Shown here in pieces: positions 70 through 10,663 of a DNA stretch of 10,663 nucleotides. Numbering within the stretch: the stretch's first letter is position 1; every line of letters starts with the position of its first letter. The notes under the pieces are model-generated. The model was not told where the DNA came from, ran no database searches, and saw only the letters and a list, made by a program, of their open reading frames with translations. The position numbers and the translations under genes were made by a program. The DNA comes from Promethearchaeota archaeon (GTDB taxonomy: Archaea > Asgardarchaeota > Lokiarchaeia > Sigyniarchaeales > SOKP01). The DNA is taken from assembly GCA_048941265.1 (NCBI GenBank), contig JBHLNT010000149.1, positions 1 through 10,663 on the forward strand, in the 5' to 3' direction.

Positions 70-1302
70 TTGAGAGAGGTAGTCATAGTTAATGGGGCAA
101 GAACTCCAATAGGACATTTTGGTAAATCATTTAAAGATGTCTCCGCTGTTGATTTAGCCTGTTTTGCTATTAAGGCGGCTCTAGAAAGATCCAAAATTAG
201 TCCATCCATGATCGAAGATGTCATCATGGGAGCTATTCATCAAGAGGGAATGGGTAACAATCCTGCTCGAATTGCATCATTAAAAGCTGGAATTCCATTT
301 ACCGCTGGGGCATTAACTATAAATAATGTCTGTTCTTCTGGAATGAAAGCCATTGAACTTGCCGCCCTTCAGATTGCAACGGGTGAATACGATACCGTGC
401 TTGCTGGAGGGATGGAAAATAATAGCCAATGTCCGTACATGCTTATGAACTCAAGATGGGGGTATAGGCTTGGAACAACCGAAGTGGTGGATGCTTTATT
501 TTATGATGGGTTTACAGATACTTATGGAATGTATGGTTCCTATAAGCATGTGGGTGAAACTGCCGAAAATATTTTACAGGATTCCAAGGAAATTTGTGCT
601 AAGTATGGGATTCCTGGAATAAAATTAACATTTGAGCATATAAATCAATTCGCTCTTGAAAGCCAACAAAAGTATCTGATTGCAAAAAAAGCCAATTTTT
701 TCGATGAAATTGTTCCTGTCGAAGTAGTTTTCAAGGGAAAAACTATTTTAGTGGATTATGATGAGAGCCCCCGAAAAGATGTTACTTTAGAAAAACTAAA
801 TTCCCTAAAGCCTGTTTTCAGAGAAGGAGGATTTGTAACTCCAGGGAACACACCTGCTCTAAGTGATGGTGCTGCTGCAGTTATATTAATGGCAAAGGAA
901 AAAGCAGAAGAAATGAATTTAAATTACCTCGGTATTTGGAAAGCATCCGCAATGGGAAATGTAGAACCTCAATATATGGGAATTGGACCGATTCCCGCTA
1001 TTAGAAACTTACTAAAAAAAACAAATTTTAGCCTAAATAATATAGATATTTTCGAGATAAACGAAGCCCAAGCTCAGCAGGTGCTTTTTTGTATAAAAGC
1101 ATTAGGTATAGATAGAAACAAAGTTAATGTCAACGGTGGCGCGATCGCATTAGGACATCCACCAGGAATGACTGGTGTACGTCTAATTTTAACTGCTCTT
1201 TACGAGTTGAAGCGTAGAAAAGGAAAATATGCGATTTGTTCTCAATGTGCTGGAGGAGGTACTGGAATGGCAACACTTATAGAACATTCAATCTCAAGTT
1301 AA
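70..1302 (+). CDS. Thiolase (acetyl-CoA C-acyltransferase family), 410 aa, TTG start
   Basis: N-terminal VVIVNGARTPIG; nucleophile Cys in NNVCSSG; AGGMEN; NEAQA (canonical NEAF); NVNGGAIALGHPPG; C-terminal CAGGGTG. Confidence 0.97.
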   Translation: MREVVIVNGARTPIGHFGKSFKDVSAVDLACFAIKAALERSKISPSMIEDVIMGAIHQEGMGNNPARIASLKAGIPFTAGALTINNVCSSGMKAIELAALQIATGEYDTVLAGGMENNSQCPYMLMNSRWGYRLGTTEVVDALFYDGFTDTYGMYGSYKHVGETAENILQDSKEICAKYGIPGIKLTFEHINQFALESQQKYLIAKKANFFDEIVPVEVVFKGKTILVDYDESPRKDVTLEKLNSLKPVFREGGFVTPGNTPALSDGAAAVILMAKEKAEEMNLNYLGIWKASAMGNVEPQYMGIGPIPAIRNLLKKTNFSLNNIDIFEINEAQAQQVLFCIKALGIDRNKVNVNGGAIALGHPPGMTGVRLILTALYELKRRKGKYAICSQCAGGGTGMATLIEHSISS

Positions 1303-1377: not shown

Positions 1378-3192
1378 TTAATCTAAAAATTTTTGTTCAA
1401 TTGAATCATAAGTATTTTTTCTTAGAGTTATATCTTCCCATTGTTGTTTTAAAATAAATTTTAGAACTAATTCATTAATATTTTTGGGTAATTCTTCTTT
1501 AAATTCTATAAACCTGGGAACCATGAAATAGGCTAAATTTTCATTAAGGAAATAATGAAAGTCAGAGTATTTCAGTTTTTTATCTTTTTTAACTACAGCA
1601 CATATTTTTATCTCTTTATTAGGAGAATTTTTAAAAGATACCTCAAATGCAGCACACTCAGATATAGCTGGATGTGAGTTAGCAATTTTTTCAATATCTG
1701 TAGCAAAAAAGATTTCTTCTCCTCTAAGAATCATATCCGTTTTCCTACCTAAATAGTACACAAAGTCTTCATTATCTCTATAACCAAACTCTCCTGTGTA
1801 AACCCATCTATTAGGTCCTATCTTCATTGATAAGGATTCTTCTAAATTATAATATTCTAATTCAAAAGGAAGCTTAGTCCTTGACACAATTTCGCCAACA
1901 TTGTTTCTTCCTGGAGGTAACTTTCTTCCATTTTCATCGACGATTTTTAACTCATAACCCCTAACTGGTGTTCCCACAGATCCTAATTTGCCACCTTTAG
2001 AACCTATAGTATTCATTAGAATTCCAATCCCCTCTACTACTGCCCAAATTTCGAAAAGTGGTATACCAAATCTTCTTTCAAATGCTTCCCACACTGTTTT
2101 TAAAGCTCCGAATCCAAATGCATACTTCAATGAATGTTTTCTATCCGAATTCTTTGGATATTGATTAACTAATGCTGACAAAAATTTGCCATTATAGATA
2201 AAACAATCTGGTTTATATTTATTTATATCATTCCAAAATCTTGATTCATTAAATTCTTCAGCTATTACTATAGATCCATTATAAAATAATGTAGGAATTA
2301 TAGCTAAATACCGTGTAAAAATATGAGCCAGAGGTAGAGAACAATATATTTTATTAGACATCTGGTTAAAACCAAAATCCTCTAATTTGCTACCTATGCT
2401 AATACCTGAAAGAGTATAATTATTTCTATATAGAACACCTTTGGGTTTTCCGGTGGCACCTGAAGTATAACAGATTTCTAAAGGATTAAAATTTTGAATA
2501 TTTACATTTGGATTTTTAGTCTCATTGGAGAAAATTTCCTGAAAATCAATAAATTTATCTTTAAAATTGAAATTACTAGAAGGATTATAAACAATAATTT
2601 TTTTAATTTGTGGAATTTTATTATGAATTTTTTTAAATTTAGAAAGATATCTGTAATCAATAATTAAAATCTCAGTATTACTATTTTTCAAGATATACTC
2701 AAGAAGATTCTCTGTCAATAAATGATTAATTGCTACTACCACACATCCCGTTTTTGCTATAGCAAACCAACAAAACATGAAATCAGGACAATCTGGGAGC
2801 AATAAAGCAATCTTTGGGCTTTTTATTTTTAATTTTTTCGTTAATTTTAAGAGGCCATTACCAATTTTATTTGAAATTTCGTTTGTATCAGCGTAAGAAA
2901 AAATTTTATTTCTAAAGTAAATAAATGGCAGATCTTTATTCATTAAAGCTTTCTTTTCCACTAAATTTGATAAAGTAGCATCATCTATACCATATTTTTT
3001 CGTTATTTGATAAAGATCATAATTTTTACGAATTACTAGTTTCTCCCCACTCAATTCTATCAGAACTTCCTCTTTATCTTTAAAAGGAAAGTAATCATTT
3101 TTAGATAAACTACTTGGAATGTAGACCCAAAAGCTTTTATAACCACGATTTCCTGATTTTTTTTCTGAAATTTTACCTTTAGCAGTTGTCAT
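1378..3192 (-). CDS. AbrB/MazE-like DNA-binding domain fused to a CaiC-like AMP-binding (acyl-CoA ligase) domain; probably catalytically degenerate
   Basis: Residues ~1-57 show a swapped-hairpin pattern (KSFWVYIPSSL...FPFKDKEEVLIELSGEKLVIRK). The remainder is ANL fold: YTSGATGKPKG, LPLAH, GSVGTP, GEIVSR, GRKTD, LAYFMVPRFIEF..ELPK. Motifs A5, A7, A8 and A10 are altered. Confidence 0.9.
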   Translation of the reverse strand: MTTAKGKISEKKSGNRGYKSFWVYIPSSLSKNDYFPFKDKEEVLIELSGEKLVIRKNYDLYQITKKYGIDDATLSNLVEKKALMNKDLPFIYFRNKIFSYADTNEISNKIGNGLLKLTKKLKIKSPKIALLLPDCPDFMFCWFAIAKTGCVVVAINHLLTENLLEYILKNSNTEILIIDYRYLSKFKKIHNKIPQIKKIIVYNPSSNFNFKDKFIDFQEIFSNETKNPNVNIQNFNPLEICYTSGATGKPKGVLYRNNYTLSGISIGSKLEDFGFNQMSNKIYCSLPLAHIFTRYLAIIPTLFYNGSIVIAEEFNESRFWNDINKYKPDCFIYNGKFLSALVNQYPKNSDRKHSLKYAFGFGALKTVWEAFERRFGIPLFEIWAVVEGIGILMNTIGSKGGKLGSVGTPVRGYELKIVDENGRKLPPGRNNVGEIVSRTKLPFELEYYNLEESLSMKIGPNRWVYTGEFGYRDNEDFVYYLGRKTDMILRGEEIFFATDIEKIANSHPAISECAAFEVSFKNSPNKEIKICAVVKKDKKLKYSDFHYFLNENLAYFMVPRFIEFKEELPKNINELVLKFILKQQWEDITLRKNTYDSIEQKFLD

Positions 3193-3210
3193 AAGAATAA
3201 ATTAAAAATT

Positions 3211-3248
3211 TTTTTACTATAGTAAATTATTTTATCATATAGTAAAAA
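3211..3248. promoter_or_regulatory. Operator-like palindrome/repeat upstream of the AbrB-ligase fusion
   Basis: Perfect 14-bp palindrome TTTACTATAGTAAA at 3213-3226. TATAGTAAA recurs 20 bp later at 3238-3246. TTTTTACTATA (3211-3221) and TATAGTAAAAA (3238-3248) form an 11-bp inverted repeat. Confidence 0.55.
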
Positions 3249-3252
3249 TAAT

Positions 3253-3278
3253 TATTAAAATAAAATCTTATTTTAATA
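3253..3278. repeat. 11-bp AT-only inverted repeat with 4-nt spacer
   Basis: TATTAAAATAA-AATC-TTATTTTAATA, between the RACo stop and the fusion gene start. Confidence 0.45.
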
Positions 3279-3341
3279 TCGAATTATAAACAAGATCTTA
3301 TAATAAAATGAGGTTTGCATAAAATTATTTTATTTATTATT

Positions 3342-5354
3342 TTACATTAATGGTAAATCTTTATATTGTTCCTTAATTGAAGGGAAATTTTCAAGGTCAT
3401 AATGAGGAAAATAAAGTGAAGCTGTAAATTCTTTCTGAAATATTGGTAAAGAAGCAATTTCATAATATTTTATATTAAATGCTATTTCGTTCGCTAGTTT
3501 TCTCTGTTTAAAATCTCTAAGTAATAATTGAGCACCAATGCCAGCAGAATTTCCTATTTGGAATACATTCTCTGATTTAACTTCGGGAAATAAACCAATG
3601 AAAGCAGCATTTTTTTTATTAATAAATGTTCCAAAACCACCTGCTAATAGAACTTGCTCAAGTGAGGTTTGATTTTTATTGTCTAATTTAATTAATAAAT
3701 ATGCTGCTGAAAGAAAAGCACCTTTTGCTAATTGAAGTTGATTAATATCTTTTTGTGTAATTATAATTTCATTACTACTACTTTTTGCGATATCATCTTG
3801 GAAGTGATTATCCCATTCTGGTTTATATAATATATAGCAGTAAAGATTTTCCCTCTTAGCAATTCTTGGATGATTTTTAATTTCATCAGATTTTAAATTG
3901 AATTTACCAGCTCGAGTTATGATTTTCGATTTTAACATTTCTGCGACCGCATCAATTAAGCCTGAACCACATATCCCTAGAGGGTTAGTATTTCCGATTA
4001 CTTTTAAAGAGGGTTCCAGTGTTTCTTTATCTATAAAGACTGACTCTATTGCCCCCTCAGAAGCCCTCATTCCACTTGAAATATGAGCACCCTCTAAAGC
4101 TGAACCCGCTGCACATGAACAAGTACATAGGCCGTTTTTATTTCCTATAACCAATTCTCCATTCGTTCCAATATCAACCAAAAGAGTATACTTTTCAAAG
4201 GTATAAATTTTTGATGAAATAATACATCCAATAGTATCTGTTCCCACATAACTGGCTATAACCGGAGGGGAATATACATTAGTATTTGGATTACAATTTA
4301 ATCCAAGAGTATTAGCACTTAAATTAATAGGAGCTTTAAAAACAGGAACATAAGGCGAAACTGCCAAAAATTCAATTGGAATACCGAAAAACATATGGTG
4401 CATCCCCGTATTCCCTACGATCGTAATATCTTTTATGTCAGAAAGAGAAATTTTTGCTTTTTTACAACAATTTTCAATAATATTGTTTATTCCATTGATA
4501 ATTAGCTTTTTGGCTTTTTCATTGTTATTATTTTTTATTATATATGTTAATCTTGAGATTAAATCTTCACCAATAGCAACTTGAGGATTTAATATAGCAG
4601 AAATGGATGATATTTGTCCAGAAATTAAATTAATTAAATATCCAACGATAGTAGTTGTTCCGATATCAATTGCTAATCCAAAAATAGTACGAGAATTTTT
4701 CCCCGAATCTATATCAAATATTTTCCAGTTATTATCTTTGCTAGTTTCAAAAGTTCTTCGATAAAATACTGTGATAACACCACTTTTTTCCCTTAATAAT
4801 AGTGGTATTTTTTTTATTACATTATATAAAGAGTTGTTTACATGGCAAGGATTATAATCTTTAAATATGTTGAATTCATCTTCCCCATTTTCAATAGCAT
4901 TAACAAACTCTGATAATAAATTTTTGGTATTTCTTAGATTCGAAAAATTAATAGAATAAGATTTTACTGCTATAACTGGCCACGGTTCTTTATCATGTTC
5001 AATTCCTAAAACTTTTAAATCTGCATCAACCAAAATCTGATTTCCTTTTGGAATTAAAGCCTCCGTTAAAAATATTCTTGAATCTCCATGAATTTTAGTT
5101 TGACAAGCGAGACGATACCCTTTTGATAATTTTGAATTTCCTAACAATTTAATTTCCTTTTTAGAAGGTTCTGAAAGTTTCGCATTAGGATCTAATATTC
5201 GGATAATACATTTTCCACATGTTCCTTTACCTGCACATAGAGCTCCTATTGGAAAATTTAATGCTAAAATCGCTTCATAAGCAGTAGAGCAGGTGGAAAT
5301 GTTAATACGTTTAGATATGGGTTCAATTATGAGTGTAACTCTTTCATTTACCAT
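3342..5354 (-). CDS. ATP-dependent reductive activator of corrinoid proteins, RACo type (N-terminal [2Fe-2S] ferredoxin plus ASKHA/DUF4445 domains), 670 aa
   Basis: CAGKGTCGKC...RLACQ [2Fe-2S] motif; DIGTTTIV; NPQ..GEDLISR; GNTGMHH; DIGTNGE; CAAGSALEG; GICGSGL; QKDI.QLQLAKGA; LAGGFG; GNSAG. Adjacent to a corrinoid protein gene. Confidence 0.95.
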   Translation of the reverse strand: MVNERVTLIIEPISKRINISTCSTAYEAILALNFPIGALCAGKGTCGKCIIRILDPNAKLSEPSKKEIKLLGNSKLSKGYRLACQTKIHGDSRIFLTEALIPKGNQILVDADLKVLGIEHDKEPWPVIAVKSYSINFSNLRNTKNLLSEFVNAIENGEDEFNIFKDYNPCHVNNSLYNVIKKIPLLLREKSGVITVFYRRTFETSKDNNWKIFDIDSGKNSRTIFGLAIDIGTTTIVGYLINLISGQISSISAILNPQVAIGEDLISRLTYIIKNNNNEKAKKLIINGINNIIENCCKKAKISLSDIKDITIVGNTGMHHMFFGIPIEFLAVSPYVPVFKAPINLSANTLGLNCNPNTNVYSPPVIASYVGTDTIGCIISSKIYTFEKYTLLVDIGTNGELVIGNKNGLCTCSCAAGSALEGAHISSGMRASEGAIESVFIDKETLEPSLKVIGNTNPLGICGSGLIDAVAEMLKSKIITRAGKFNLKSDEIKNHPRIAKRENLYCYILYKPEWDNHFQDDIAKSSSNEIIITQKDINQLQLAKGAFLSAAYLLIKLDNKNQTSLEQVLLAGGFGTFINKKNAAFIGLFPEVKSENVFQIGNSAGIGAQLLLRDFKQRKLANEIAFNIKYYEIASLPIFQKEFTASLYFPHYDLENFPSIKEQYKDLPLM

Positions 5355-5362
5355 TTAATTAG

Positions 5363-5368
5363 ACCTCC
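5363..5368 (-). promoter_or_regulatory. Shine-Dalgarno site of the RACo gene
   Basis: GGAGGT on the minus strand, 8 nt before the ATG at 5354. Confidence 0.75.
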
Positions 5369-5459
5369 TAATAGTTTTGAATATTTTTCTAAAAAAAAAA
5401 TCTTAAAATTTTTATTTAAACAAGAAATATCCTTTGGAAATAGGAAAAAATTAGTTATT

Positions 5460-6146
5460 TCATTCGCTAAGCCATTTGTCAATGATCTCAACTCCCGTTA
5501 AGGCATCTAGAGCATATGCATCTGCCTTTGTTTCTTTGGCAATCTCAGAAGAGGCTGCAGCTCCACCAAGGATAACTTTTACTTTATGAGCTAGATTTTC
5601 TTTCTTTAATAAATTCATTACTGTTTTAATAGCTGGTTCTACTGAAGAGAGAAGATACGAAATTCCAATAACTTTAACCTCTGGTAATTTTGCATATTTA
5701 AAGAAAACTTCAGGTTTGACATCTACACCGAGATCTATTATATCCATTCCATAAGATTTCATTAGGGCAACTAATACATTTTTACCTAGATTATGTATAT
5801 CTCCTTCAATAGTGCCAACAACAATCTTTCCTGAATATTTTTTCGCATTAGCAGCATCGTTATATTTCGTTTCATCTAGCAATAAGACAGCATCTTCAAT
5901 TGCTTCTGCTGCCAAAATAAGTCCTAACTCCCCAGATTCTTCTAAGCCTTTTAAAATCCCTTTCTGGATAATATCAATGCTTGAGATACCCGCTTTTATC
6001 GCTCTTTTTATTGATTCTTTCATTGAGAAAAAATCTAATGTTTCAACAGCTTCAATGATATGATTGATAAGGGACTCATCAATTTGAACAATATTTGCAT
6101 TTTCCATATTAAGACACTTCCTTTTAGATGTTATAGAAGGTTCCAT
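5460..6146 (-). CDS. Methyltransferase-associated corrinoid protein (MtaC/MttC-like: helical cap plus B12-binding domain); real start may be the ATG at 6107
   Basis: GTIEGDIHNLGKN (DxHxxG), IIDLGVDV, IGISYL, VKVILGGAA, ADAYALDA. A GGAAGTG SD-like sequence precedes the second Met (MENANIV, 6107). Confidence 0.95.
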   Translation of the reverse strand: MEPSITSKRKCLNMENANIVQIDESLINHIIEAVETLDFFSMKESIKRAIKAGISSIDIIQKGILKGLEESGELGLILAAEAIEDAVLLLDETKYNDAANAKKYSGKIVVGTIEGDIHNLGKNVLVALMKSYGMDIIDLGVDVKPEVFFKYAKLPEVKVIGISYLLSSVEPAIKTVMNLLKKENLAHKVKVILGGAAASSEIAKETKADAYALDALTGVEIIDKWLSE

Positions 6147-6149
6147 ATT

Positions 6150-6935
6150 TTAAATTATTAAAACAATGCCATGCCAAGCACAGAAAGGTACCGATTTAGC
6201 AGGATGCTCAGGATTAATTACATATGGGGTCTTCTCACCACAATTAGTCACTGTAGCAAAAACATCAACACCACAAGCTTCTAACGAAGGTCGTGCTCTT
6301 AAGTATTGGCTGCACATTTGTCCTTCGAGAGCTGGACATCTAGGTAATTTTTTTCCTTTAGCTACATCCACTACATATTCTGGCGATATAAACCCACAAC
6401 CAAGGCATGGTCCTCCGCTAAATCCCATAGCAAGATAATAACCTAAATAGGTTGCTTCGGCCTCTATTCTTGTTACCATTTCATTCAATAAGTTCACATC
6501 ACCGGCAGCACGCGTAAGAAAACCAGGAAATACATGGTTTTCTACAGGAGGATAGAAACAAACTAAAATTCCATGTTTATAATTTGCAACTATTTCTCTC
6601 ATCTCTTCTGTAGTAGGAGAATGCGGAGGGCAATTTAACGACATTCCATAACCGAAACATACTGGGATTCTACACTTCCATCGAACCCGAGGATCTATTA
6701 CGATTTTTTCAGTGGTAATTAATTTAGCATGGCCTGTAGAATTAGATTTCGCATTAGAAATTACTTTTTGTATTATATCATTTGATCTTTTATTTAGTTC
6801 TTCAAAAACTTCCATATCCGCTTTTCGTCGAATAGGAGATGGTGGTCTATCCTTTTTTTCTGGTAAAGGATTACGGCGTTTATATGAGACATTAGACCAA
6901 CGTCTTTCTATTTCTGGTATTACTTTTCTTTGCAT
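6150..6935 (-). CDS. DUF2284-family Cys-rich predicted metal-binding protein with N-terminal extension, 261 aa
   Basis: DPRVRWKCRIPVCFGYGMSLNCPPHSP, GYYLAMGFSGGPCLGC and C...C...ARPSLEACGVDVFATV match my recollection of the DUF2284 consensus. Confidence 0.85.
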   Translation of the reverse strand: MQRKVIPEIERRWSNVSYKRRNPLPEKKDRPPSPIRRKADMEVFEELNKRSNDIIQKVISNAKSNSTGHAKLITTEKIVIDPRVRWKCRIPVCFGYGMSLNCPPHSPTTEEMREIVANYKHGILVCFYPPVENHVFPGFLTRAAGDVNLLNEMVTRIEAEATYLGYYLAMGFSGGPCLGCGFISPEYVVDVAKGKKLPRCPALEGQMCSQYLRARPSLEACGVDVFATVTNCGEKTPYVINPEHPAKSVPFCAWHGIVLII

Positions 6936-7302: not shown

Positions 7303-7518
7303 ATGCCTGAGTGTAAATTAATTAAGAACTGCCCATTTTTTCATAATAAGATGGAAAATATGCCTTCTATTGCTGAGTTATATAAAAAAAAATATTGTCA
7401 AGGTGATAATGTTAATTGTGCTCGATTTAAAGTATTTAATGCCCTCGGACGATCTGAAGTTCCTATAGACTTATTTCCTAATCAAATTGAACGTGTAAGC
7501 AAAATCATAAATTCTTGA
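7303..7518 (+). CDS. Small conserved-looking 4-Cys hypothetical protein, 71 aa (putative metal-binding)
   Basis: MPECKLIKNCPFF...YCQGDNVNCARFKV...VPIDLFPN, with pattern CX5C-X21-CX6C. AGGTGA (7292-7297) is an SD 5 nt before ATG 7303, so the ORF-track GTG at 7294 is probably part of the RBS. Confidence 0.8.
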   Translation: MPECKLIKNCPFFHNKMENMPSIAELYKKKYCQGDNVNCARFKVFNALGRSEVPIDLFPNQIERVSKIINS

Positions 7519-7539: not shown

Positions 7540-8412
7540 TCAATCTAACAATTTAGGGTATCTTTTTTCCATTGCTAATTCTTTTTCAATGATTTGGTTT
7601 AGTAAATCTTCCCGTTCCTTACCACCAAGAACTTCTAATTTTCTAATTTCCAGTGGATCTACTTTTTCTCTTAGGAGTTTAAGTTCTTTTTTTGAAGGTG
7701 GTTTTGTTTCTTTTAAATCATCTGGAATGATTAATTCAAATCCGGTTGAATTTTTTACTGTTTCAATTTCTATTCCTGGATGAATGGTGTCAATTTTCAT
7801 TCTTTTTGATTTATCATCAAAAGTTAGATAAGCCAGATTAGTAATGACACATTGAGGTCCAGAACCACCGCATATGCTAGACTTTCCATCTGGAAATCCG
7901 ACTCCTGAAATAAAATCAATTTTTGGAACAAAGGTTCTTGTATCGTGTCTTGGAGTATATAAATAACTGCCTCGGGAATAAAACATGGAAAAGTCTGCTA
8001 TTCCGGCACATCCAGGAAACCGTAGTTTAGGATTATTCCAATCTCCTATGCATATATTATTTGTATTTCCATATATATCAATTTGCGCAGGTCTAAACCA
8101 TTCAATTGTTGTTAATTTCTCTGAAGGAAGAGATTCTAAAGTGCATTCTCCTGAATTCTGAAATCTATATGCCCTTGCTGTATTCATCTCCAAATATAAT
8201 AAAGAAACTTGACGCGGTTCATATACAAAAGTATTTCCCATGATATAATGATATATCGCGTCAGGAGCTTGTGTTAGCTTAGCAAGTGTAAAAGCAGCCC
8301 AAACCATTGGAGTAGCAACCCCAACAATCATCACGTCATCATTTCTTACTTCTCGGGCCATTAAAACCGTGAGCATTTCATCAACAGTGAAATTATTTGA
8401 GTATTCAGTCAT
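7540..8412 (-). CDS. Class I CoA-transferase-fold beta subunit (GctB/IpdB/AibB-like) lacking the canonical catalytic Glu
   Basis: MAREVRNDDVMIVG, AQIDIYGNTN, RFPGCAG, H..RTFVPKIDFISG, GPQCVITNL, IHPG...NSTGFEL, LREKVDP. The hhhESG site reads YHYIMG. Confidence 0.92.
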   Translation of the reverse strand: MTEYSNNFTVDEMLTVLMAREVRNDDVMIVGVATPMVWAAFTLAKLTQAPDAIYHYIMGNTFVYEPRQVSLLYLEMNTARAYRFQNSGECTLESLPSEKLTTIEWFRPAQIDIYGNTNNICIGDWNNPKLRFPGCAGIADFSMFYSRGSYLYTPRHDTRTFVPKIDFISGVGFPDGKSSICGGSGPQCVITNLAYLTFDDKSKRMKIDTIHPGIEIETVKNSTGFELIIPDDLKETKPPSKKELKLLREKVDPLEIRKLEVLGGKEREDLLNQIIEKELAMEKRYPKLLD

Positions 8413-8424
8413 TTAATCCTATAG

Positions 8425-8431
8425 CACCTCC
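8425..8431 (-). promoter_or_regulatory. Shine-Dalgarno-like site overlapping the alpha-subunit stop codon
   Basis: Minus strand reads TAGGAGGTG, with GGAGGTG 12 nt before the beta ATG at 8412. Spacing is long but suggests translational coupling. Confidence 0.55.
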
Positions 8432-9291
8432 TACAATAAGATGTTCAATATCGTTTGAGCGCCCCCCGCAGCATCCAAATATTGAACATTTGATTTATTA
8501 AGTATAAAATTTTGCTTATATTGTTCAAATTCAGTTTTTAGATAACTTTGAATATGATTCGGATCAAAGGTATAAATCGGGTAACATGAAGTAGGATGGG
8601 CTCCAAAAGGGATTTTTACGACGGCCGATGTAGTTTGCATTGGTAATTGTGCCTTACCGGGCAGATTCCTAATATCGTCTAATTCGACGAGTTTCTCACA
8701 TGTAATAATTGTTTTTTTAGCAGTTTTTGCCATATCATCGTCCAGCCACACTGCTCCCGCAATATTTCCATTTCCAAATTCATCAGCATAGGGAACATGT
8801 AAGATAGCAATGTCTAAATCAATTTCTGGAAGAGCCATTAACTGAGTTCCCGATCCTAATGGATCTTCAAATTGTATGATATCATCTCTGACTTTAGGAA
8901 AATCTGTACCAATTATTCCTTTTAATGGCATAAATGGAACCTTTAAATATGAGCATTTCAATCCTAAAGCGATTGAAGCCTCACTCTCTTCAGAGATTTT
9001 AATCGAACCGGATTCAACTGCTTTTCGGTAATGGGGCGCCATTCCAAATATTTCCATTCCCACAAAACAAGACTTTACATGTGAAATACAACCACCACCT
9101 ATGAGCATGTCGACCTCAATTCCCCCTACAAAAGTACACAATGTGAGATCTTTTCTATTTTGTCGTATAATCTCTCTACATGCGCTTATAGGTTTCCTCC
9201 AGAACGAGAGCCCCCCAATCCCAACAAGATCTCCATCTTGAACGTAAGTGGATATTGCTTCCTCTAAAGACATTAATTTACTTGTCCTCAT
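8431..9291 (-). CDS. Class I CoA-transferase-fold alpha subunit (GctA/IpdA-like), 286 aa
   Basis: SKLMSLEEAI..YVQDGD.VGIGG, REIIRQ..KDL, VPFMP..G..GTD, LHVPYADEFGN, IITCEKLV, PFGAHPTSC. Lies 18 nt from the beta subunit. Confidence 0.93.
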   Translation of the reverse strand: MRTSKLMSLEEAISTYVQDGDLVGIGGLSFWRKPISACREIIRQNRKDLTLCTFVGGIEVDMLIGGGCISHVKSCFVGMEIFGMAPHYRKAVESGSIKISEESEASIALGLKCSYLKVPFMPLKGIIGTDFPKVRDDIIQFEDPLGSGTQLMALPEIDLDIAILHVPYADEFGNGNIAGAVWLDDDMAKTAKKTIITCEKLVELDDIRNLPGKAQLPMQTTSAVVKIPFGAHPTSCYPIYTFDPNHIQSYLKTEFEQYKQNFILNKSNVQYLDAAGGAQTILNILL

Positions 9292-9476
9292 TTATTTACC
9301 CCTTATTTCTTTCCATGTTAGACAGAAGAAATATTTTAATAAATACTATAGAAATCATAATTGTGTATCAAATTAAAGATTATATATTAGAAGATCGAAA
9401 AATTAAATTGATTTATGATACTGTCCTAAGTATATAATATTTTAATTTTTTATCCTAGTAAAAGTCGGAATGCAAT

Positions 9477-10010
9477 ATGCGAAAAAGATTGAAGCAAGGT
9501 CTTGTTCAGGTATATTTCGGACGCGGGAAGGGTAAGACTACAGCAGCCCTTGGGCAAGGTTTCCGGGCAACTGGACACGGTTTTAAAGTGTACATGATTC
9601 AATTTATGAAAGGTAATACAAGATATGGTGAAATAGAAGCAATTAAAGCTAATCCCTATTTTGAGGTTAAACAGTTTGGAACTGAAGAGTTAATTGAAAT
9701 GCCTCGGGAAATAGACTATGAAGAGGGAAAAAAAGCGATTGAATTCGCTGATAAAATTATCAAAAGCGACGAGTATGATATTGTCATCCTAGACGAAATT
9801 GGAGTTGCCATTCAAATGGGAATCGTTGATGTGGAGGACGTTTTAAAATTAATAGATGCCAAACCTGAGAAAGTCGAATTAATCCTTACGGGAGGTCTAA
9901 AAATGCACCCCAAAATTAAAGAGCGGGCTGACTTACTTACAGAAATGAAGATGATAAAGCACTATTATTCTTCAAAAGGAATAAATGCTCGTTATGGGAT
10001 AGAATATTAA
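9477..10010 (+). CDS. cobO: ATP:cob(I)alamin/cob(I)yrinic acid a,c-diamide adenosyltransferase (CobO/BtuR/CobA type), 177 aa
   Basis: GLVQVYFGRGKGKTTAALG P-loop, IQFMKG...GE, YDIVILDEI, VELILTG, ADLLTEM..IKHY, ARYGIEY. Confidence 0.95.
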   Translation: MRKRLKQGLVQVYFGRGKGKTTAALGQGFRATGHGFKVYMIQFMKGNTRYGEIEAIKANPYFEVKQFGTEELIEMPREIDYEEGKKAIEFADKIIKSDEYDIVILDEIGVAIQMGIVDVEDVLKLIDAKPEKVELILTGGLKMHPKIKERADLLTEMKMIKHYYSSKGINARYGIEY

Positions 10011-10085: not shown

Positions 10086-10663
10086 ATGGTATTATCAAAA
10101 AGAGAGCGTGTGATCCGAACTTTAGAACTCGATGATGAACCAGATATGGTTCCAATTTATTTTATGGGATTTGAAAAAACCGGTAAGGCTTATCAACATT
10201 TTAAAACAACTAAAGATTACAAAGAAAATGAATTATATATTAAAAATAGTTTTTCTAATAAAAAATACAAATGGGCGGGATCTTTAACTCAGCATCGGTT
10301 TTTAAATGTGGATTGTCATACAATGGACCCCTGGTACATCTATAAATACAAAATAAAGAATATTCCCGCTCCACCTGAATATCCCGAATGCGTATTAACT
10401 CCAATTGATGGGAAAATTTGGAAACAAGTAGAACAAGTTAATACAGGAATGTTCTATCGTTGGTATGTAGATGGTTATTTTACTACTCCTGAAATATTAC
10501 ATTCCTATTGGGATGAATATGGGAAACCTTCGGAATTAATAAACGATGAAATCGATTATACACCACAGATTTGGGATGATTATGTAGAAAGTCTTTCCCC
10601 ATACTTATACCCAATGGCCTCTTTTCCAATTGCGATGCATGAGGCTTTATTTGAGGGAATGAC
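10086..10663 (+). CDS. Uroporphyrinogen decarboxylase/MtaA-CmuA superfamily protein (possible corrinoid-dependent methyltransferase), truncated by the window end
   Basis: Not in the ORF track because there is no stop. My translation from ATG 10086 is open for 192 codons: MVLSKRERVIRTLELDDEPDMVPIYFMG...WYVDGYFTTPE...MHEALFEGM. The start matches the family's (T/S)xRERv....ePDxVP motif. The C-terminal metal ligands lie outside the window. Confidence 0.75.
   Translation, partial: MVLSKRERVIRTLELDDEPDMVPIYFMGFEKTGKAYQHFKTTKDYKENELYIKNSFSNKKYKWAGSLTQHRFLNVDCHTMDPWYIYKYKIKNIPAPPEYPECVLTPIDGKIWKQVEQVNTGMFYRWYVDGYFTTPEILHSYWDEYGKPSELINDEIDYTPQIWDDYVESLSPYLYPMASFPIAMHEALFEGM

Follow-up and report, generated by a model that had tools for sequence, protein, structure and literature searches.

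A gene pair in a 10,663-nucleotide stretch of Promethearchaeota DNA (the window) encodes an α and a β subunit with the CoA-transferase fold of the GctAB type (class I), and the encoded enzyme is probably not a ping-pong transferase. Classical ping-pong CoA transfer would be closed to this α–β enzyme because Ile57 replaces the nucleophile of the β subunit, and an invariant Glu of the α subunit, Glu104, is a candidate catalytic acid/base.

The α subunit gene (P0001; 8431..9291, minus strand; 286 aa, GctA/IpdA/AibA-like) and the β subunit gene (P0002; 7540..8412, minus strand; 290 aa, GctB-like without the catalytic Glu) were assigned from ORFs and translations, Pfam and phmmer searches of the PDB, and their ORFs are 18 bp apart in the window. 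The Pfam CoA_trans family (PF01144; cut-off of 23 bits) matched α with 46.6 bits and β with 35.9 bits, placing the fold in both subunits. Against the PDB, phmmer E-values were 4.9e-40 (GctA), 6.3e-27 (IpdA) and 1.6e-21 (AibA) for α, and 7.5e-30 (GctB), about 4e-14 (AibB) and about 1e-13 (IpdB) for β. The expectation of the initial annotation that automatic pipelines would call the pair a transferase is confirmed by the names of orthologs in source records, which read 'glutaconate CoA-transferase subunit B', 'CoA-transferase subunit beta' and 'acyl CoA:acetate/3-ketoacid CoA transferase beta subunit'. In the available parts of the literature on glutaconate CoA-transferase in Asgard archaea, Lokiarchaeota methylmalonyl-CoA mutase and Glu-less CoA-transferases, nothing on the present Asgard family was found; for DUF169, none of the publications among the matches listed looked relevant by title and abstract.

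In class I CoA-transferases, the catalytic Glu of the β subunit (E-x-G or SENG motif) forms the enzyme–CoA thioester. The strand that bears this nucleophile in real transferases corresponds here to H55-Y-I57-M-G-N60 (8233..8250, minus strand), as judged by translation, profile alignment and conservation, with Ile57 (codon 8242-8244, minus strand) filling the Glu column; the translation of 8233-8268 on the minus strand is APDAIYHYIMGN. A 30-sequence family profile aligned without gaps to GctB (1poi_B) and AibB (5mzw_D), placing Ile57 opposite the E of GctB 'VESG' (Glu54) and the C of AibB 'ACVG' (Cys56), and the PDB entries of AibB point mutants vary precisely in this column. The single-sequence phmmer alignment of β with GctB contains a 3-residue gap and sets Tyr54 opposite the GctB catalytic Glu; the nucleophile column is without Glu in both alignments alike. 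When 136 family representatives were aligned with MAFFT, the Ile57 column held E in the 10 sequences with the E-x-G motif, and 125/136 of the nearest 50%-identity representatives had no Glu there. Across Asgard β cluster representatives, H55-Y-I-M-G-N-T61 was identical in 120/120. The family profile, the MAFFT column and this conservation bear out the loss of the nucleophile, and the placement of Ile57 at GctB Glu54, that had been read from the window alone. In an unlabelled FastTree tree of 135 representatives, built without GctAB, IpdAB and AibAB, the E-x-G sequences formed one clade amid Glu-less ones.

Conservation of the β subunit extends well beyond this strand, reaching at least 98% at 145/290 positions in 120 sequences, and in the 136 family representatives Q110 (132/136), D112 (135/136) and N118 (136/136) are retained. 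His55 (codon 8248-8250, minus strand) is specific to the Asgard clade, the column being L, I or F in the wider family of 136 representatives, and Glu65 is near-invariant (119/120 Asgard sequences). Glu65 and the invariant His55 are alternative candidate catalytic residues. Glu75 was also considered as a displaced or replacement nucleophile and rejected: column 75 is E or D in 110/136 representatives and D in 9/10 E-x-G sequences, and an acid that Glu-bearing sequences carry as well is not standing in for the nucleophile.

The α subunit carries the motif E101-E-S-E104-A-S (8974..8991, minus strand). This EESEAS motif, together with RKP at residues 32-34 and LDDD at 183-186, is present in the translation as first described. 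Glu104 (codon 8980-8982, minus strand) indeed falls in the column of IpdA Glu105, where the IpdA entry 6co6_A carries E and 6coj_A carries A. As GctA shows Q and AibA shows G in this column, no solved relative other than the hydrolase IpdAB has a Glu at this position. E101, E102, E104 and A105 are identical in 66/66 Asgard α ORFs, and E101, E102 and E104 remain at least 95% conserved after adding 20 α sequences of a bacterial sister clade, which is also marked by the motif EE[ST]EAS. A second pair in the same genome (contig C205) keeps the β Glu ('AMEVG') and by alignment has no Glu in the α-104 column; in this genome, then, a pair has its Glu at one position or the other.

Modeling of the α–β complex, as suggested in the initial annotation, placed Glu104 at the subunit interface, and like complexes have been solved. 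The model of α, β and CoA scored 0.90 (best of 3 controls, 0.00), against a mark reached by 116/157 solved complexes and 2/215 mismatched pairs; this pass speaks only for likeness to the solved GctAB, IpdAB and AibAB and may reflect memory of them. The runs agreed in at least 90% of contacts, with partner pLDDT of at least 89. In the model, α 101 and 103-105 lie against β 136-140, α 104 touches β 136/137 with an expected error of 0.7 Å, and β 58-61 is at the interface. The β loop contacted by α 103-105, G134-C-A-G137-I-A-D140 (GCAGIAD; 7993..8013, minus strand), is conserved among family representatives at G134 (135/136) and G137 (116/136), and it is probably the counterpart of the class I transferase loop GxGGxxD.

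GctAB of Acidaminococcus fermentans (PDB 1POI) is the nearest solved relative of both subunits; it likewise has two separate chains, which fall in the same length class and the same Pfam family. For α, scores against GctAB, IpdAB and AibAB were 141, 98 (entries 91-98) and 80 bits with the single sequence and 167, 147 and 135 bits with the profile; for β, they were 108, 52-54 and 56-58 bits and 158, 122-129 and 137 bits, respectively. The proposed IpdAB-like membership is thus not supported, as GctAB scored higher for both subunits in single-sequence and profile searches. With the thioester-forming GctB Glu54 changed to Ile57 and the GctA Gln to Glu104, the pair shares the fold of GctAB, and the GctAB mechanism is closed to it. 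IpdAB, the COCHEA-CoA ring-cleaving hydrolase of steroid catabolism (PDB 6CO6, 6CO9, 6COJ and 6CON), has likewise lost the β nucleophile and has its IpdA Glu in the column of Glu104, but its single-sequence match to β spans only the C-terminal half, its IpdA motif is REMDEG instead of EE[ST]EAS and the host here is an anaerobic archaeon. IpdA Glu105 is said, in the PNAS work of Crowe et al. from 2018, to be the catalytic base. AibAB, the 3-methylglutaconyl-CoA decarboxylase of Myxococcus xanthus (PDB 5MZW-5N03), is a Glu-less Gct homolog like the pair, and AibB also has an acid near column 75 (Glu72/Asp73); its Cys/Gly signature, however, is replaced here, with Ile57 for AibB Cys56 and Glu104 for the AibA Gly. 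Neither an HMG-CoA synthase nor an AibC-type reductase was seen among the neighbors of related loci. The pair is neither IpdAB nor AibAB.

Related Asgard loci have the adenosyltransferase CobA on one side of the pair and the operon of an unusual B12 acyl-CoA mutase on the other, and the phyletic spread of this operon is that of the pair. In the window's own genome the mutase is on contig C173; for activity it depends on its small subunit, MeaB and AdoCbl. Within the window, a divergent intergenic region of 185 bp (9292..9476), presumably containing promoters, separates α from the conserved divergent neighbor encoding ATP:corrinoid adenosyltransferase CobA/CobO (9477..10010, plus strand; Pfam CobA_CobO_BtuR, 2.2e-56). 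ORF clustering found CobA near the pair in 42/80 sources, and in many related loci it is divergent and near α. The best match of the neighboring mutase is 2-hydroxyisobutyryl-CoA mutase (4r3u_A, 441 bits; human MCM, 344), and Phe, Ala and Tyr occupy the columns that we take to be those of MCM Tyr89, HcmA Asp117 and MCM Arg207; the mutase adjoining the pair is without the Arg that binds the substrate carboxylate in methylmalonyl-CoA mutase. A methylmalonyl-CoA decarboxylase beside a methylmalonyl-CoA mutase was dropped as a lead, the mutase being nearer 2-hydroxyisobutyryl-CoA mutase and of the Phe/Ala/Tyr type.

Other neighbors in 79 related Asgard loci include an SCPx-type thiolase (18 sources), its DUF35 partner (14), a MaoC hydratase (16) and ACAD with ETF (4 each), a set of acyl-CoA enzymes such as would act after a hydrolase. 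A tie to a thiolase, like that of IpdAB to FadA6, did not hold: the thiolase of the window (70-1302) is on the opposite strand, 6 kb from the pair, and recurs in 1/79 related loci. Families of IpdC or EchA20 had no match among the annotated neighbor clusters, and the steroid ring C/D context (FadA6 thiolase, EchA20, IpdC and IpdF) was not found there. The β ortholog itself occurs in about 104/134 genomes of the window's family at roughly 80% identity, and a protein so near-universal and so conserved suggests a central reaction rather than peripheral ring cleavage.

Our best guess, held tentatively and from sequence, is that the pair carries out Glu104-driven water addition or C–C hydrolysis. 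Sitting at the subunit interface and facing the β G134-D140 loop, Glu104 would serve as general base/acid toward an acyl-CoA bound in what was once the transferase pocket. The water chemistry would resemble that of IpdAB: either an unsaturated acyl-CoA would be hydrated, or a β-oxo acyl-CoA would undergo retro-Claisen (hydrolytic C–C) cleavage. The substrate probably arises as an intermediate in the pathway to which the unusual adenosylcobalamin-dependent acyl-CoA mutase belongs. Against water chemistry, the pair scores nearer the true transferase GctAB than IpdAB, the annotated neighbor clusters match neither IpdC nor EchA20, the wide spread of the β ortholog points to a central reaction, and the hydrophobic old nucleophile site and the family-level absence of biotin carboxyltransferases fit a decarboxylase equally well. 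Such a biotin-independent, AibAB-like decarboxylase of a carboxy-acyl-CoA (glutaconyl-, 3-methylglutaconyl- or an alkylmalonyl-CoA), which we rank second and regard as somewhat unlikely, would take the carboxylate into the hydrophobic Ile57 pocket, release CO2 and use Glu104 to protonate the (di)enolate. Precedent is given by AibAB, a Glu-less Gct homolog described in the available part of its report as decarboxylating 3-methylglutaconyl-CoA with a dispensable Cys56, at column 57 (PMC7756340), and GctAB, the nearest solved relative, binds glutaconyl-CoA; AibA, however, has Gly where the Asgard clade has the invariant Glu104. A search of the window's genome (91% complete) for the carboxyl transferase PF01039 gave no match, with the control positive in 12/14 genomes. 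PF01039 is mostly absent from lineages with the β ortholog (f1, 12/134; f5, 0/3; f6, 0/2; f7, 0/2; f21, 0/6) and mostly present in those without it (f13, 28/31; f15, 11/12; f16, 22/22; f18, 12/12; f19, 18/19), a complementary pattern that amounts to only two or three independent lineages and is not exclusive, as 10/12 f1 genomes with PF01039 also carry the β ortholog. A glutaconyl-CoA-forming route in the window's genome is conceivable because it contains 13 matches to HGD-D (2-hydroxyacyl-CoA dehydratase family) and the second, Glu-bearing Gct-like pair, but Hgd genes were linked to the pair in no locus examined. No argument from context points to methylmalonyl-CoA, since the mutase is without the carboxylate-binding Arg of methylmalonyl-CoA mutase.

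It is quite improbable that the pair still moves CoA, by intramolecular dicarboxylyl-CoA transfer via an internal anhydride or through another carboxylate nucleophile (α Glu104, β Glu65 or β Glu75). The model for the former is ThnP of anaerobic naphthalene degradation, a family I enzyme of the Cat1 subgroup that, in the accessible portion of its description, is active without the conserved Glu and shifts CoA between two carboxyls of one substrate, with an internal anhydride proposed (PMC11659651). The retained fold, the AQ(I/V)DxxGNxN segment, the G134/G137 loop and the dicarboxylate-handling GctAB as nearest relative agree with continued CoA movement. ThnP, however, is a single chain of a different subgroup and not a GctAB-type heterodimer, so that the likeness, drawn from its description, is an analogy only; the internal-anhydride route needs no invariant acid/base motif such as EExEAS, and the column-75 acid occurs in Glu-bearing sequences as well. 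IpdAB, which shares the exchange of Glu positions and in RHA1 has Gly57 in the Glu column, did not transfer CoA when given short acyl-CoAs, according to the part of the report available (PMC5380842). That the pair is a catalytically dead acyl-CoA binder (a sensor, carrier or scaffold) is hardly credible: the nucleophile is lost and an HTH regulator gene is nearby in 37/80 sources, but conservation across the pocket is very strong and α EExEAS is invariant, as is typical of an active site, and both characterized Glu-less relatives are enzymes.

Beyond the Glu104-driven water chemistry that we favor, a more far-reaching reading, which we consider unlikely, is that the pair and the F/A/Y-type adenosylcobalamin acyl-CoA mutase make up an undescribed carbon-skeleton pathway in most of the window's Loki-type family and one further Asgard family, the CoA-transferase fold having been re-tooled, with Glu moved from β to α and the clade-specific His55, for a reaction new to it. 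Biotin-free decarboxylation or C–C cleavage, replacing a carboxyltransferase-dependent step missing in these lineages, is one example of what such a reaction could be.

Asgard archaea are the closest archaeal relatives of eukaryotes. Reconstructions of their metabolism take over the source label 'glutaconate CoA-transferase' for these genes, and in the portion available, one preprint assigns Gct subunits to butanoate metabolism. Should the pair prove to be something other than a transferase, those steps are misassigned. To our knowledge, reactions are known for only two Glu-less relatives, IpdAB and AibAB, and with 125/136 representatives Glu-less, a large number of unexplored enzymes must be concealed within this fold. 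The pair, traveling with an unusual B12 mutase, poses a concrete and testable two-enzyme problem.

On the downstream side, a Pfam scan of the 70-aa ORF at 7306-7518 gave no match. The downstream corrinoid module (DUF2284, corrinoid protein, RACo and ligase) was considered as a functional partner and found to be a weak candidate, as it follows β in only 11-14/80 sources; in the window it is split from β by 605 bp holding an opposite-strand ORF. Across related loci, α and β are about 75-90% identical and the adjacent corrinoid module 56-69%; few proteins of this neighborhood are as well conserved as the pair.

The alpha gene (P0001; 8431–9291, − strand, 286 aa) and beta gene (P0002; 7540–8412, − strand, 290 aa) are separated by 18 bp, and both products exceeded the Pfam CoA_trans cut-off of 23 bits (46.6 and 35.9 bits, respectively) while reaching no NCBIfam cut-off. 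In single-sequence phmmer searches, alpha scored 141 bits against GctA of glutaconate CoA-transferase, 91–98 against IpdA and 80 against AibA, and beta scored 108 bits against GctB, 56–58 against AibB and 52–54 against IpdB (C-terminal half only). The initial annotation had described an IpdAB-like pair without the catalytic Glu of class I CoA-transferases, and the sequence letters and coordinates that it quoted were correct on re-translation. The single-sequence phmmer alignment of beta with GctB opens a three-residue gap that sets Tyr54 opposite the Glu of 'VESG'. Alignment of a 30-sequence profile (A3) to GctB and AibB proceeds without this gap and sets Ile57 in register with the GctB Glu and with the Cys in AibB 'ACVG', the same column at which AibB mutant entries differ, confirming that the beta nucleophile is absent. 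Passages of PMC5380842 name this residue Glu54-beta for GCT and, for the IpdAB enzyme of RHA1, Gly57-beta, and a passage of PMC7756340 names it Cys56B in AibB.

The alpha subunit carries Glu104 in a column that reads E in IpdA entry 6co6_A, A in 6coj_A, Q in GctA and G in AibA, and the proposed match of Glu104 to the IpdA Glu was upheld. We take 6COJ to be the Glu105-to-Ala variant of IpdA, and Glu105 is reportedly the catalytic base of IpdAB. A model of alpha (A2), beta (A3) and CoA scored 0.90 (best control, 0.00); 116 of 157 solved complexes attain this mark, as do 2 of 215 mismatched pairs. As like complexes have already been solved, such a score indicates likeness and may reflect structures memorised by the predictor. 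Contact agreement between runs was at least 90% and partner pLDDT at least 89. The interface list has alpha 101 and 103–105 contacting beta 136–140 and also holds beta 58–61 and 75–76. From the contacts of alpha 103–105, Glu104 is predicted to sit in the inter-subunit cleft against the beta loop G134-C-A-G137-I-A-D140, presumably equivalent to the GxGGxxD loop found in class I transferases. Beta Glu65 is missing from the list, an absence that is no evidence against contact.

Conservation was assessed on both subunits. The beta segment H55-Y-I-M-G-N-T61 was identical in all 120 Asgard cluster representatives (78–100% identical), in which 145 of 290 positions were at least 98% conserved. Alpha residues E101, E102, E104 and A105 were invariant in 66/66 Asgard ORFs, a set obtained from crude ORF calls at 79 related loci by reducing 71 cluster members to those of 250–330 aa, with the window's copy left out. 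An exhaustive beta search yielded 1848 relatives (E ≤ 0.001) among 50%-identity representatives; the best 150 of these and the query, with fused proteins trimmed to the last 310 residues and fifteen fragments dropped, gave a family alignment of 136 representatives of at least 240 aa. Here the Ile57 column held G (25), T (16), S (14), A (13) or E (11) among its residues, and an E-x-G motif was present in only 10. In a FastTree phylogeny of 135 representatives (midpoint root, support unread), the E-x-G sequences formed one clade within a Glu-less radiation, and the sequences around the Asgard branch read x-[VI]-G-N at the Glu-column site. Beta Glu75, invariant in the clade, was considered as a displaced nucleophile and rejected, because its column is acidic in 110 of 136 representatives (E in 68, D in 42), with D also present there in nine of the 10 that have E-x-G, and is therefore a family-wide feature. 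His55, invariant in the Asgard set and L, I or F in the wider family, would share the direction of residue 57 on the beta-strand, a geometry that makes it a second catalytic candidate.

A metagenome scan with the x-x-G-N group alignment recovered a bacterial sister clade of 80 loci, with beta subunits 54–77% identical to representative P0132. Of the 26 alpha ORFs at these loci, 20 were taken by a length filter of 240–340 aa; in their alignment with the query and 12 Asgard alphas, E101, E102 and E104 were at least 95% conserved within EE[ST]EAS, a motif that therefore defines the clade across archaea and bacteria. The sister-clade context (class I/II aminotransferase, 15; YbgC-type thioesterase, 9; MBL-fold hydrolase, 8; also ETF, ACAD, ligase and thiolase) is not the same as that of the Asgard loci. 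Glu stands at alpha-104 in four of the 15 fused alpha-beta representatives, all four being Glu-less in beta, and the remainder have Thr, Ala or others. The window's own genome (5.0 Mb, 361 contigs) encodes one further CoA_trans pair at L080 on contig C205 (alpha′ 1267–2202 and beta′ 441–1283, both − strand), in which beta′ reads 'LAMEVGL', an E-x-G motif, and in our alignment the alpha-104 column is occupied by Leu rather than Glu. The C205 pair is a plausible true transferase in the same organism by these residues, and with beta Glu kept and Leu at alpha-104, the two sites act as alternative places for the Glu. This pair is flanked by a divergent gene for an AMP-forming ligase and by a gene for a corrinoid protein that is truncated at the end of the locus.

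Compared with known systems, the P0001–P0002 pair has the fold of GctAB but lacks its defining beta Glu, and so, on mechanistic grounds, the name CoA-transferase should not be applied to it. The Glu swap, lost from beta and present in alpha, is common to the pair and IpdAB; however, GctAB is nearest by score and the gene context is not that of steroid catabolism, and membership of IpdAB itself had to be abandoned. Neither signature residue of AibAB is found in the pair (Cys and Gly versus Ile57 and Glu104). The pair represents a clade of its own, as yet uncharacterised, within a known kind of re-tooled enzyme; literature searches on Glu-less and Asgard CoA-transferases found no paper on it.

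Genes near the pair were counted from crude ORF clusters in 80 sources (79 genome loci and the window), and the counts are lower bounds because many loci are cut by contig ends. These included beta (77), alpha (70), CobA (42), an HVO_0163/MarR-type HTH protein (37), an NfsA-like nitroreductase-family flavoprotein (36), DUF169 (34), MeaB GTPase (32), an ICMT-like membrane methyltransferase (32), the B12-binding small mutase subunit (25), the MM_CoA_mutase large subunit (24), SCPx-type thiolase (18), MaoC hydratase (16) and DUF35 (14). The usual order is a divergent cobA (in the window 9477–10010, + strand, divergent from alpha), then DUF169, alpha, an optional nitroreductase and beta, then HTH and ICMT, followed by convergent MeaB and the two mutase subunits. 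Both subunit genes are held by 67 sources; they are adjacent in 35, separated by the nitroreductase gene as sole insert in 17 and by an ACT–homoserine dehydrogenase–threonine synthase–HAD cassette in 8. Such splitting, seen at L004, L005, L007, L009, L012, L013, L017, L028 and other related loci, is unusual for an obligate heteromer.

The mutase large subunit P0279 (14973–16646, − strand, of related locus L001; present in 23 other related sources) is closest to 2-hydroxyisobutyryl-CoA mutase HcmA (4r3u_A, 441 bits), with human methylmalonyl-CoA mutase at 344 bits. It reads 'RLFSGH' versus 'RQYAGF' in MCM and 'RQIAGF' in HcmA, has Ala at the Asp of HcmA 'ISTD', and reads 'TVGYIPY' versus MCM 'MVRNTY'. 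Phe, Ala and Tyr thus occupy the three columns on which substrate choice depends in MCM, ICM and HCM, where we take the substrate-column residues to be Tyr89, Arg207, Ile90 and Asp117. Lacking the Arg for a substrate carboxylate, the enzyme is unlikely to use methylmalonyl-CoA. Among 100 genomes at least 95% complete, orthologues (at least 69% identity) were confined to the window's family, f1 (55 of 63 genomes), and to family f21 (5/5). The window's own genome has one on contig C173 (1396–3066, 95% identical) and a canonical MCM on contig C301. The three column residues, together with confinement to the pair's two Asgard lineages, indicate that this mutase probably has a new substrate specificity.

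Across the phylum, 263 of 400 genomes had a beta match at E ≤ 1e-20, and orthologue-level beta (at least 54% identity) occurred only in families f1 (113/134 genomes, or by our reading about 104 after subtracting 8 paralogue-level and 1 stop-broken copy), f5 (3/3), f6 (2/2), f7 (1/2) and f21 (6/6). The pair and the unusual mutase have the same phyletic spread, and since their genes lie 475 kb apart on a closed f21 chromosome (G117), in that genome they co-occur without linkage. The carboxyl transferase domain PF01039 has the opposite family pattern, being found in 12/134 (f1), 0/3 (f5), 0/2 (f6), 0/2 (f7) and 0/6 (f21) genomes of the families with a beta orthologue and in 28/31 (f13), 11/12 (f15), 22/22 (f16), 12/12 (f18) and 18/19 (f19) elsewhere; it was not found in the window's own genome (91% complete; control positive in 12/14 genomes). 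This complementarity, over two or three independent lineages, is only suggestive: a beta orthologue is present in 10 of the 12 f1 genomes that encode PF01039, and f10, f20 and part of f3 have neither. MCM-family mutases occur in both family groups, being present in 145 of the 159 genomes that are at least 92% complete. The window's genome has two, along with 13 matches to HGD-D (2-hydroxyacyl-CoA dehydratase family); no methylmalonyl-CoA epimerase scored above the cut-off there (best 52.7 bits versus 115).

Classical CoA transfer requires the beta Glu, and IpdAB is a Glu-less family I member that acts as a hydrolase. Passages of two reports describe other Glu-less members, the decarboxylase AibAB (PMC7756340) and ThnP, a Cat1-subgroup enzyme that transfers CoA intramolecularly (PMC11659651). 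With loss of the beta Glu fixed in both the orthologue group and the sister clade, the pair is probably not a ping-pong transferase; that it still moves CoA in some way appears quite improbable, and a catalytically dead pair would be very surprising; some probability is reserved for reactions beyond those weighed here. The initial annotation had proposed a retro-Claisen hydrolase or a decarboxylase. An AibAB-like decarboxylase is consistent with the hydrophobic nature of Ile57, with the precedent of AibAB and with the lack of carboxyltransferases, but AibA has Gly in place of Glu104, and we regard this activity as unlikely. We tentatively prefer a reaction in which Glu104, invariant, shared with IpdA only and located in the modelled active-site cleft, would assist water in hydration or retro-Claisen cleavage of an acyl-CoA. 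The location of the pair, with cobA on one side and the mutase operon on the other, and the common phyletic pattern suggest that the pair and the unusual mutase may have a substrate or product in common.

On the − strand of the window (1378–6935), genes for DUF2284 (6150–6935), a corrinoid protein (5460–6146), a RACo/AcsV-like reductive activase (3342–5354) and an AMP-forming acyl-CoA ligase (1378–3192), whose N-terminal extension of ~70 residues is without assignment, form one module. It was treated as a separate unit, as its four genes lie 3′ of beta in just 11–14 of 80 sources and are separated from beta in the window by 605 bp with an opposite-strand ORF. The module resembles a corrinoid methyltransferase system, with the methyltransferase subunits themselves absent from the window. 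The intervening Cys-rich ORF (7306–7518, + strand, 70 aa, starting MPECKLIKNCPFF) is convergent with beta, has a purine-rich aggtga a few bases upstream and had no Pfam match. A 192-aa partial ORF (10086–10661, + strand) that runs past the window end had no Pfam or NCBIfam match, and tblastn against the 79 related loci gave no homologue at the threshold used. The window is AT-rich (GC 0.23–0.38) and also encodes a thiolase (70–1302, + strand). By the source names of its closest relatives it belongs to Promethearchaeota/Promethearchaeia (Loki-type Asgard archaea). Locus L012 (DATKTW010000023.1), labelled Nanopelagicaceae bacterium, carries alpha and two beta copies, 78–85% identical to those of the window, in the Asgard gene order and is probably a mis-binned Asgard contig.
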